In this document: piece by piece, positions 15,001 to 18,000 of the stretch
Layout: the number at the start of each line of letters is the position of its first letter
How positions within the stretch are numbered: the first letter of the stretch is position 1
Source: Candidatus Ryanbacteria bacterium CG10_big_fil_rev_8_21_14_0_10_43_42
GTDB lineage: Bacteria > Patescibacteriota > Minisyncoccia > Ryanbacterales > 2-02-FULL-48-12
Reading direction: 5' to 3'
Assembly (NCBI GenBank): GCA_002793915.1
Contig: PFEF01000005.1
Location: 83,108-147,107 of the forward strand
Length of the DNA: 64,000 nt
Position numbers: made by a program

Positions 15001-18000
15001 AATTTTTTGCCCATATAGCGCCTGTGCTTATTATTGAATTTGTGCCAAAGGAAGACTCTAATGTAAAGCGCCTTTTAGTAACACGGGAAGATATTTTCCC
15101 GCACTATACGAAGGAAGGATTTGAGAAAGCATTTTCTGCATTTTTTTCTCTTGAGGAATCAAGCTTTATAGAAGGAAGTACGCGTATTCTCTATCGCATG
15201 AAGCGAAAAGATATATGAAAATAATATCACACACAATATTATTTGCGCTTTATCCCATACTGTTTCTATTTGCCGAGAATACCGACGAGGTGGTAGTGGG
15301 AGATATTATAGTTCCCGCTATGTTGTCATTGGGGCTTACAGCATTAGTGTACGGCATCTCATGGTTATTGTATCGGGATTCTGGTAAGGCAAGTATTTTT
15401 ACCTCGTTTTTTTTGCTATTGTTTTTTTCCTACGGACATATATTTGAGCCCGAAAATGGATTGTATTGGATACGGCACCGATATCTTCTTACGATATGGG
15501 TGGTATTATTTGGTGCTGGTATGTATGGATTATGGCAAACAACACGGAATACAAAATCATTTTCAGCCATACTTAATATAATTGCTGTCGTATTGGTAGC
15601 AGGTTCCCTTTTTCAAATTGGGAGTTACATGTTTAGGGTACAGAATATTTCTACAAATGGCGTGTACGCTCACCTTGATACAGCTGAACACACGAACGCT
15701 ATAATTACAGCAAAAGAAAACACTGGTATACGGCCCGATATTTATTATATTATCCTTGATGCCTATGCGAGCGCTGATATACTGAAGGAAGTGGGATACG
15801 ATAATACGGCATTCCTTGCGTTTCTAGAAGACAGGGAATTCTATGTGGTGCCTCATAGTTTTAGCAACTATTCGGCAACGCATCTTTCATTGGCGTCATC
15901 TCTTAATATGGATCATATTGCCACATTAAGTACTGAACCGGGTTTTGTTACAAAAGAAACAATTGACCATCGAACGCTTATAGAGGCAAATCGCGTCCGG
16001 CAATTTTTGCAGGAGCAGGGATACGAATTTATTCAGTTTAATTCTCATTGGCACGCTACGTTCAAAAACCGATTTGCAGATGAAAATGTAAGCGTAGGGT
16101 ATATGCCGGAATTTTTAAATATTTTATACCAGACCACAGCGGTTTATCCTATCGGTGAAAAATTTGATGCATTTAATCCGCGCAATATTCAATATAGGCG
16201 CATCAAGAGTCACCTTGATTATTTGCCTGAAATAGCAAAGCGTGATGGCCCAACATTTGTATTTGCACATCTCATTGTGCCGCATCCGCCATATGTTTTT
16301 GATAGAAATGGCAATTTTATTCAAGATGAACAGGAAACGGAAGAAGAATTACGGATGGCGTACATTGAGCAGGTAATGTTTATAAATAAACAATTAGCAA
16401 GAGTCGTTGATGAAATTCTATCAGAATCAAAAACACCTCCTATTATTATTTTACAAGGAGACCATGGATCTCGTCTGGAAGATAAAACAGCAATCAAAAA
16501 AGAATCTGAACTCACCGACTGGTTTTTAAAAGAGCGGCTTGGCGCGCTGAATGCCTACTATCTTCCTAATGGAGGACAAAAAGCATTGTACGAAGGCATG
16601 ACGCCGGTTAATACTTTTCGTGTTCTTTTTAATTACTATTTCGGCACGTCGTTTGAATTGCGGCCGGATGATAGTTATCTCGCGCCTCCATGGAGCGATG
16701 GATACGACATTATTAACGTTACAGAACAAATTCGAGAAAAATAAAAAAGCTCTGCTGTCAGAGCTTTTGTGACAGGATAACTATATTTGTCAAGATTTCC
16801 ATGCGGATAAGTCTTTCCCAAGAAGGGATGCCAGTTTTTCGATATCGGCAGCATAGTAAGAGGAGAGTTGGGCGCGTATATCCGGCGTAAGTGGGGTATA
16901 CGCTGTTTTTTTCTCACTTTTTGTGACAACGGCGCGGCGTATCGGATTATATAACACTCGCTTTATCGCATTATTAATATGTAGAAATTTCATAATGCGA
17001 ATGATTATTCGCCCTATAGGATTACGCATGGCGTGTTCGGAGGTAATGGTAAATGAGCGTTTTAAGGTTGATGCTTTGGGTGCTGATGGATTTACTTCCA
17101 ACACAAGGGAGGGAGGTATAAAGGAAGGGTTAATGTTAAGGAAGGTATAGAGATTTTTTATGAATAAAGCCGGTTTTTTTCGCATTTCTTCATAGATACC
17201 TATAAAAATTTGCTCGCGCGGGAATACTGTAAGGTATCGTTTTATATATTCGTAATATAATCCCGAGGCGAGGTACGCGTCATTTTTGATAAGCTTCTCA
17301 AATGGCGGATACGTTCTTCCTTCTGCCTTATGTAGGTACTGGGAATATGTTTGGTCTACGGGATTTCTGAGAAGAAGTACTAGCTTAATATTGGGGAAGT
17401 GTTTTTTAATGAGTTCCGGTGCCTCCGAATCGTAAATGTAATCAGTGCTCCATTCGCCTTTTATGATAGCGGACGCACAGTGAGTAAAATGGTTTTTGTA
17501 CCATTCCATGCCTTTAGTGTAATTCCATAGATCAGGTCTATCTTCAAATGAAAACAGCATGAACCGCCGCCTGTTAAAAAAATGAAGTTCCTTTGGTTTC
17601 GATACACATGCTTCGGGATGTTCATCTACACATGCAGCAGCCCATGAGGTACCGCATTTGGGTGCTCCTATGCCTATGAAATCAAGAGTAAATTGATCAG
17701 ATGAATTCATGGTTATTCTTTGAATTTAAAAATAATGAACCCTAATAATTGATTAATGGAGCGTCCAAGGATATGTCCTATAATAGCACCCCAGATACCA
17801 AACCAGGGAATAAGAGCGAATACGGCTACTATCTTAATAACCGGAGAGAGAATTTTGAATGCATATACATTCTTTATCGTGCCCTCTGCTTTTAAGATGA
17901 CACCGAATATATTAAACGGATACAGTACTAATGAAAGGGCAAAGATTTGGGAAAGAAGAACGGATTCCGTATAGCGGGGAAACAGGATGTTAAATAATAA

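Follow-up and report, generated by a model that had tools for sequence, protein, structure and literature searches.

Introduction

Several bacterial systems decorate glycans with phosphorylated groups. The glycerol-phosphate transferases LtaS, GacH and OpgB work through a threonine nucleophile and take a phospholipid head group as donor. In the BcsE-BcsF-BcsG phosphoethanolamine-cellulose module, a cytoplasmic protein and a small membrane protein accompany a membrane-anchored enzyme of the alkaline-phosphatase superfamily that decorates an exported polysaccharide. WbdD is a kinase-methyltransferase that caps the O9a antigen with methyl-phosphate. Bacteria of the Candidate Phyla Radiation (CPR) lead a host-attached life, and their surfaces have received almost no study. 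Here we describe a glycan locus from Candidatus Ryanbacteria that fills a 64,000-nucleotide stretch of contig PFEF01000005.1 (the whole stretch is called the window below). In this locus, a gene for a sulfotransferase of 306 amino acids (aa) converges with a gene for a 509-aa membrane enzyme that bears a Pfam Sulfatase domain. We conclude that the adjacency of the two genes is incidental and without functional meaning, and that the true partners of the 509-aa gene are the two genes directly upstream of it. The genes and the element between them are the following.

13595-13843, plus strand: small membrane protein of 82 aa, first gene of the cassette (homologues, alignment and hydropathy)
13818-15218, plus strand: cytoplasmic partner of 466 aa with a C-terminal S-adenosylmethionine (SAM)-dependent methyltransferase domain (weak methyltransferase Pfam matches)
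15215-16744, plus strand: membrane enzyme of 509 aa (predicted open reading frame, Pfam Sulfatase domain)
16745-16768, no strand assigned: terminator-like hairpin AAAAGCTCTG-CTGT-CAGAGCTTTT inside the 45-nt gap between the convergent stop codons
16790-17710, minus strand: cytoplasmic carbohydrate sulfotransferase of 306 aa, of the type that uses 3'-phosphoadenosine-5'-phosphosulfate (PAPS) (Pfam Sulfotransfer_1, motifs)
17713-18981, minus strand: Wzx-type flippase of 422 aa (Pfam Polysacc_synt, 63.8 bits)

Two convergent units that probably act independently

The arrangement is probably best understood as two independent, convergent units of a Wzx/Wzy-type glycan locus that abut. The first unit would be the flippase-sulfotransferase operon (18981-16790, minus strand). 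The second would be the cassette at 13595-16744 on the plus strand, in which the 509-aa enzyme is joined by a cytoplasmic enzyme of two domains and a small protein serving as membrane anchor. The hairpin between their stop codons is the top-ranked terminator-like site in a scan of the window from 12 to 20 kb; read on the minus strand, it has a stem of 10 pairs and a T-rich tail. The total of terminator-like sites is no higher than in shuffled sequence and this hairpin is a consensus match only, one that may separate two transcription units.

Both genes are real and not an assembly artefact, since at least four independent assemblies encode the identical pair of proteins among the same neighbours, and both proteins are present as deposited entries on a 524,376-bp contig (COU90_02010 and COU90_02015, each annotated as 'hypothetical'). 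An earlier reading of this DNA, made from the sequence alone, had described a PAPS-type sulfotransferase converging with a sulfatase-fold membrane enzyme inside a glycan locus of a CPR-like organism. This description is confirmed. Both open reading frames lie where it placed them, their domain assignments hold above the curated Pfam cut-offs, and both PAPS-binding motifs are present in the translation. Neighbouring Wzx, Wzy_C, Bac_transf and glycosyltransferase genes confirm the glycan-locus setting, and the organism is a Candidatus Ryanbacteria metagenome-assembled genome (MAG).

The functional pairing that this reading implied is contradicted by the gene neighbourhoods. A sulfotransferase is found in 0/80 metagenomic loci of the 509-aa family. 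Conversely, a scan of one genome per species yielded 80 loci of sulfotransferase relatives, and the 509-aa family occurs in just one of these (L024). The locus of the closest 509-aa relative (L171, 54% identity) is syntenic with the window and shares with it the cassette, Wzx, PMT_2, Oxidored_FMN, epimerase and NUDIX genes. In that locus a convergent Wzx gene directly follows the 509-aa homologue, there is no sulfotransferase, and the block found at 19-29.7 kb of the window is absent. Because the sulfotransferase is missing from the closest syntenic locus, we conclude that it is a variable accessory of the locus and not a partner of the 509-aa enzyme. The lesson for annotation is that a 'sulfotransferase' beside a 'sulfatase' is, in this case, a coincidence.

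The 509-aa enzyme is a distant alkaline-phosphatase-superfamily member

The 509-aa protein matches the Pfam family Sulfatase (PF00884) at 50.7 bits, above the cut-off of 25. It has no NCBIfam match, and neither phmmer nor a profile of 30 sequences retrieved a sequence match from the PDB. The family has at least 3995 members that share about 40% identity over their full length. Among 30 aligned members, the motif C/S-x-P-x-R from which formylglycine is made is absent anywhere in the protein (0/30), and the equivalent position reads T-H-L-S-L. The T222 position is Thr in 28/30 and Ser in 2/30. D175, D182, S225, H352 and G418 are invariant, and D416 is Asp in 29/30. These residues fall into or near conserved segments that read PDIYYIILD-Y, SNY--T--SL-SSLN, H352----PH357-P and ILQ-D416-(H/E)417-G. 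Given the missing motif and the conserved Thr, the protein is not a formylglycine sulfatase, which leaves little room for the suggestion that it is a true sulfatase editing the modification made by its neighbour.

In the confident AlphaFold2 (AF2) model (pLDDT 86.5, pTM 0.81), five helices at the N-terminus (5-21, 28-53, 56-80, 88-108 and 114-147) are connected by a disordered linker to an alpha/beta domain. Transmembrane (TM) helices are predicted at about residues 3-21, 26-53, 56-80, 88-108 and 114-147, and the ectodomain at 175-509. Hydropathy and the positive-inside rule predict an N-in/C-out topology, and on the strength of these loop charges the catalytic domain would be extracytoplasmic. 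H6, N22 and S72-Y73-G74, at the outer membrane face, are invariant in the family. T222 is modelled just before helix 225-231, which we take to be the site where nucleophiles of the alkaline-phosphatase superfamily sit. The proposed metal site and nucleophile comprise D182, T222 (with S225), D416 and H417, and their spacing presumably matches that of EptA and LtaS.

The top Foldseek match of the model is full-length EptA (5FGN, 4.5e-9). Further matches include EptC, MCR-1, PbgA and LtaS, mixed with many true sulfatases. Like EptA, MCR-1 and EptC (5FGN, 9NWW, 4TN0, 6A82), the protein is predicted to combine five N-terminal TM helices with an extracytoplasmic alkaline-phosphatase-fold domain. Its putative sites also resemble theirs, with a Thr followed by x-x-Ser, an acidic ligand ~40 residues upstream and an Asp-His pair downstream. 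The similarity to the EptA group is nevertheless distant (query-normalised TM-scores of 0.36-0.43 and 11-14% identity), with no match at the sequence level. Unlike EptA, the enzyme has Asp rather than Glu as its proposed first ligand, its His417 is replaced by Glu in 17/30 members, and it is accompanied by conserved partner genes that EptA lacks. Membrane-anchored architecture is also common to the glycerol-phosphate transferases of the LtaS, GacH and OpgB type (4UOO), but LtaS is the structural match of rank 35, below EptA and several sulfatases, and has no sequence-level relationship to the 509-aa protein.

With type I formylglycine sulfatases the enzyme shares the superfamily fold, the PF00884 match and, in a weak alignment, a D-(H/N)-G metal-ligand segment in the register of arylsulfatase A. 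The hhalign comparison with arylsulfatase A is confined to the C-terminal half (0.6% probability) and sets D416/H417 weakly over the metal ligands D281/N282. The enzyme differs from these sulfatases in lacking C/S-x-P-x-R, in having a Thr in place of the Cys/Ser-derived formylglycine and in its polytopic membrane anchor.

We conclude that the 509-aa enzyme belongs to the alkaline-phosphatase superfamily, but only distantly. The sequence-only reading had favoured an enzyme of the LtaS/EptA type. It was right about the kind of enzyme, as the Thr, the five TM helices, the outward-facing domain and EptA as best structural match all indicate, and wrong if family membership was meant, since judged by its sequence the protein is not a member of the LtaS/EptA family. 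The evidence supports a Thr-nucleophile phosphoryl-transfer enzyme with EptA/LtaS architecture that belongs to a separate, distant family.

The 509-aa enzyme is part of a widespread three-gene cassette

In the window, the reading frames of the cassette genes overlap, those of the 82-aa and 466-aa proteins by 26 nt and those of the 466-aa and 509-aa proteins by 4 nt. Of the 80 metagenomic loci that encode a 509-aa family member, 54 include enough upstream sequence for a view of the neighbourhood. In 30 of these 54 informative loci there is a counterpart of the 466-aa gene, 28 times as the immediately preceding gene on the same strand, and a homologue of the 82-aa protein is encoded in 35/54. 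The same cassette order is found in four further contexts inside polysaccharide loci (L169, L170, L171 and L172). The cassette is very widespread: its members number in the thousands and come from Chloroflexota, Nitrospirota, Acidobacteriota, Spirochaetota and CPR bacteria. Across loci, the 466-aa homologues share 51-59% identity and the 509-aa homologues 33-41%.

Hydropathy and alignment indicate that the 82-aa protein begins with a hydrophobic stretch and has an AY-(L/I)-DPGTGS motif, a single TM helix and, on the cytoplasmic side, a basic tail. Its family alignment conserves AY.DPGTGS...Q...A...G.....K..W. In one metagenomic locus (L108:8405-9979), the reading frame of the 82-aa homologue continues without a break into that of the 466-aa homologue, owing either to a natural gene fusion or to a frameshift introduced by sequencing. 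This read-through suggests that the 82-aa protein anchors the 466-aa enzyme to the membrane, and the fusion, if real, supports a physical link between the two proteins.

The 466-aa family comprises at least 8000 homologues that are annotated only as 'SAM-dependent methyltransferase' or 'PrmA'. Foldseek matches of the confident AF2 model (pLDDT 86.1) are to methyltransferases only, of class I and over the C-terminal half, and the methyltransferase part of WbdD is among them. The N-terminal ~260 residues have no match in Pfam (22 members searched) or in the PDB (domain-only profile). An exhaustive HMMER search with this domain returned 3847 clusters with essentially one architecture. The pattern LKD121-x4-N126...ID138 and the order of secondary-structure elements prompted us to consider a kinase-like domain, which was not confirmed. 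The 22 members gave no Pfam kinase match, the domain-only profile gave no PDB match, and hhalign returned a probability of 0.2% against NPTII and PKA.

The cassette shares the logic of the BcsE-BcsF-BcsG module. It differs in that its cytoplasmic partner carries a methyltransferase domain, unlike BcsE, and BcsG is not among the top 50 structural matches of the 509-aa model. Other genes near the cassette may hint at phospho-alcohol decoration chemistry. An Adlerbacteria locus that carries the cassette (L172:10046-13297) has a LicD-like gene and a fusion of NTP_transferase and Glyphos_transf domains nearby, and both the window (30909-31862) and L171 have an NTP_transferase gene in the vicinity of the cassette. 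Some 5-9 kb before the window begins (L173:1446-5187), two adjacent RtcB RNA-ligase paralogues are encoded together with a CDP-alcohol phosphatidyltransferase. The latter could bear on the phospholipid head-group donors available to the 509-aa enzyme.

A gene that is routinely labelled 'sulfatase' is thus part of a large, conserved three-gene cassette in the polysaccharide loci of many phyla, and a target for experiment. The cassette is a more original lead than the sulfotransferase, which belongs to an already known enzyme class.

A PAPS-type sulfotransferase encoded next to a flippase

The 306-aa protein matches Sulfotransfer_1 (PF00685, 70.8 bits, cut-off 22) and Sulfotransfer_3 (PF13469, 47.9 bits, cut-off 27). 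The 5'-phosphosulfate-binding (5'-PSB) loop GAPKCGTSW occupies residues 15-23, with K18 as its Lys. The 3'-phosphate-binding (3'-PB) motif LLLRNPVDQTYSQY occupies residues 112-125 and includes R115-N-P117-V-D-Q-T-Y-S123. In 30 sequences of the family, G15, R115, P117 and S123 are invariant, T21, W23, K40 and E41 are kept in 90% or more, and position 18 is occupied by K or R. Hydropathy revealed no TM or hydrophobic segment.

A search of the PDB returned 3RNL, a bacterial sulfotransferase from structural genomics, as a full-length match (2.2e-29), followed by the heparan sulfate (HS) 3-O-sulfotransferase 3-OST-5 (1.7e-11), then 3-OST-1 and 3-OST-3, and NDST1 (2.6e-7). Cytosolic sulfotransferases (SULTs) matched only at E ~0.01. 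A grouping with non-carbohydrate sulfotransferases, which the sequence-only reading had named as the outcome that would speak against it, was therefore not what we found; the protein groups with HS 3-OST-5, 3-OST-1, 3-OST-3, NDST1 and 3RNL. The segment K40-E41-L-H43-F-F aligns over 'QEIHFFD' of 3-OST-5, which, from published work on the 3-OSTs, we take to carry the catalytic Glu/His.

The enzyme thus shares with HS 3-OST and NDST (PDB 3BD9, 1VKJ, 1NST) and with 3RNL the Sulfotransfer_1 fold family, the Lys loop of the 5'-PSB, the Arg/Ser of the 3'-PB and the Glu-x-His base segment. Unlike the 3-OST and NDST enzymes, it is bacterial and soluble, has a divergent C-terminal third and is encoded in a Wzx/Wzy locus. 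Its Asn46 aligns to an Asp of 3-OST-5. Its family is also unlike theirs in being dominated by sequences from CPR bacteria, Chthoniobacterales, Nitrosomonas and Methanocaldococcus.

The start of the sulfotransferase gene follows the Wzx stop codon after 2 nt on the same strand, and the two genes probably form one operon. From its sequence features and its position, we infer that the protein is a cytoplasmic PAPS-dependent enzyme that would act ahead of export, sulfating one of the sugars in the repeat unit.

Relatives of the sulfotransferase recur in CPR genomes, some beside PAPS genes

CPR bacteria account for 27 of the 80 sulfotransferase loci by label and include Saccharibacteria, Magasanikbacteria, Paceibacterota, WWE3, Kaiserbacteria, Falkowbacteria and Peribacteraceae. 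The remaining loci include Methanocaldococcus, Chthoniobacterales and Nitrosomonas. The homologues are commonly found in the company of genes for family 2 glycosyltransferases (GT2), epimerases/dehydratases, UDP-sugar dehydrogenases and Wzx, the last in 7/80 loci.

A kinase for adenosine 5'-phosphosulfate (APS) is encoded at most 10 kb away in 8/80 loci, and 5 of these 8 also encode the GRDHAG motif of ATP sulfurylase. A Magasanikbacteria locus (L009) has the Pfam-confirmed order PAPS_reduct, APS_kinase, Inositol_P (CysQ-like), sulfotransferase, Wzx and second sulfotransferase. In a Parcubacteria locus (L017), a fused ATP-sulfurylase/APS_kinase gene, also Pfam-confirmed, lies two genes from the sulfotransferase. 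This linkage of sulfotransferase homologues to PAPS genes argues well, if indirectly, for PAPS as the donor used by the family and for an ability of some CPR bacteria to synthesise it. A published survey has reported PAPS synthase genes in groundwater CPR MAGs (PMC12114108).

Some loci encode more than one sulfotransferase. In the Magasanikbacteria locus, paralogues are arranged around one Wzx gene (L009:7869-13487), a third copy lies at ~17938-18819, and two UDP-sugar dehydrogenase-like genes are found alongside. Multiple copies also occur in two Saccharibacteria loci (L011 and L018).

We found no paper connecting sulfotransferases with CPR bacteria in the literature searched. The interest of the sulfotransferase lies in the organism and in the recurrence of the family in CPR genomes, sometimes with PAPS genes alongside. 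As the family is enriched in CPR bacteria and several members are linked to sat, cysC or cysQ, negatively charged sulfated glycans may act at the interface with the host.

Proposed activities and alternative explanations

We propose that the 5'-PSB and 3'-PB loops of the sulfotransferase most likely form its PAPS-binding site and that Glu41, together with His43, would serve as the base for sulfation of a sugar hydroxyl. The acceptor may be an undecaprenyl-phosphate-linked repeat unit or a nucleotide sugar, modified before Wzx flips the product outward. On the other side of the hairpin, the 509-aa enzyme would, like EptA, LtaS and BcsG, transfer a phosphoryl group by way of a phospho-Thr intermediate rather than hydrolyse a sulfate ester. 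The putative Thr nucleophile, the proposed Asp/Asp/His(Glu) metal site and the absence of a formylglycine motif are the grounds for this proposal. Most likely, it would add a phosphorylated substituent to the exported glycan or process one that is already there.

Several findings weigh against this interpretation. Position 417, a proposed metal ligand, is His in 13/30 members of the 509-aa family and Glu in more than half. The Foldseek matches have query-normalised TM-scores of 0.34-0.43 and identities of 10-15%, and sulfatases score almost like EptA. T222 and D182 were assigned from conservation, spacing and position in the model rather than from a residue-level alignment to a solved enzyme. 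The 466-aa partner is absent from 24/54 informative loci, so the cassette is common and not obligatory. Finally, the sulfotransferase may lack its donor, since no sulfate-activation gene was found around it: APS kinase, ATP sulfurylase, CysD/N and CysQ are all missing from ~77 kb that comprise the window with ~7 kb before it and ~6 kb after it. This search combined Pfam annotation of all genes with tblastn searches (CysC/CysD probes) and motif regexes across the window and flanking loci.

The alternatives can be weighed against the same evidence. The notion that the 509-aa protein is a true sulfatase erasing the sulfate written by its neighbour draws on the name of its Pfam domain, on the adjacency of the two genes and on the carbohydrate sulfatases among its structural matches, whose E-values are only 10-100x weaker than that of EptA. 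PF00884, however, also covers transferases of the LtaS, EptA and MdoB types. With no C/S-x-P-x-R and a Thr or Ser at the nucleophile position in the 30 members, no gene of the type of the formylglycine-generating enzyme (FGE) or the anaerobic sulfatase-maturating enzyme (anSME) seen among the annotated genes of the ~77 kb, and the sulfotransferase absent from the family's loci and from the closest syntenic one, a write/erase pair is largely refuted and very improbable. More credible, though still unlikely, is a hydrolase, that is, an extracytoplasmic phosphodiesterase or pyrophosphatase that trims a phosphate cap added by the 466-aa protein or releases the glycan from its lipid carrier. Thr-nucleophile enzymes of the superfamily do include hydrolases, for example the NPPs. 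The partner has a methyltransferase domain and WbdD among its structural matches, and its conservation, which is better than that of the 509-aa enzyme, suggests a shared small substrate. On the other hand, the WbdD match covers ~232 columns only, the size of a methyltransferase domain, and no confirmation was obtained that the partner's N-terminal domain is kinase-like. The five-TM anchor with its invariant outer-face residues moreover resembles lipid-dependent transferases such as EptA. We therefore retain phosphoryl transfer to or on the glycan as the preferred activity.

For the sulfotransferase, one alternative is that it is an orphan without PAPS synthesis, whether inactive, a recently acquired remnant or supplied with PAPS from a host cell. 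It would account for the lack of any gene for sulfate activation or for recycling of 3'-phosphoadenosine 5'-phosphate (PAP) in the ~77 kb, where several relatives have such genes adjacent, and for the absence of the sulfotransferase from the closest syntenic locus. We consider it improbable, as the catalytic and PAPS-binding residues are all intact and an identical protein is kept in at least four assemblies. PAPS genes are nearby in only 8/80 relatives, which makes a distant location the norm, and groundwater CPR bacteria have PAPS synthase genes (PMC12114108). Slightly less probable again is that the enzyme acts on a lipid, a small metabolite or a protein and is found in a glycan locus by chance. 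The acceptor cannot be read from the sequence, and the nearest structure, 3RNL, has no assigned substrate. Yet Wzx lies 2 nt away on the same strand, the nearest characterised relatives are glycosaminoglycan sulfotransferases, and the homologues commonly keep the company of sugar-processing and Wzx genes described above. Sulfation of a repeat-unit sugar with PAPS as donor is thus the activity that we favour.

Two further-reaching possibilities are attractive, and we hold them tentatively. The cassette may represent an undescribed three-gene, membrane-spanning system for glycan modification whose chemistry is unlike that of the known phosphoethanolamine and glycerol-phosphate transferases, for example one that installs a methylated phospho-substituent. 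In addition or instead, surface glycans sulfated with the cell's own PAPS may be common, and unreported, in CPR bacteria.

Other features of the glycan locus

The 64 kb around the gene pair form one large glycan locus. Besides the Wzx flippase, it encodes two Wzy_C proteins, a Bac_transf initiating transferase and glycosyltransferases of the GT2, GT4 and PMT_2 families (three of the last). GDP-mannose dehydratase and other nucleotide-sugar enzymes are also present. Further genes encode a carbamoyltransferase, a GDSL esterase and no fewer than eight methyltransferases.

The carbamoyltransferase (603 aa) is encoded at 25257-28744 with a small SxtJ-like protein and the GDSL-family esterase/acyltransferase. 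These predicted functions suggest that the same glycan may also be O-carbamoylated or O-acylated. The two Wzy_C-domain proteins are consecutive (49857-54304) and unusually large (748 and 732 aa), and one has faint matches to tetratricopeptide repeats (TPR). They could represent two polymerases or ligases in one locus.

A region at 41066-44738, inside the glycan locus, brings together an acetaldehyde-dehydrogenase-like gene (AcetDehyd-dimer), an HMGL-like/DmpG aldolase and a 597-aa thiamine-diphosphate enzyme. Together, their products may make a sugar that is branched or C-acylated. No tRNA or Rfam element was found in the 64-kb window. GC skew is positive in 31/32 of its 2-kb bins, and nearly all long open reading frames are on the plus strand. 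Adjoining the glycan genes, the region at 45632-48344 encodes an ATP-grasp_2 and Citrate_bind protein, a CoA_binding/Succ_CoA_lig protein and a short Citrate_synt protein. This trio resembles pieces of an ATP-citrate-lyase or citryl-CoA system, which is unexpected for a reduced CPR genome.

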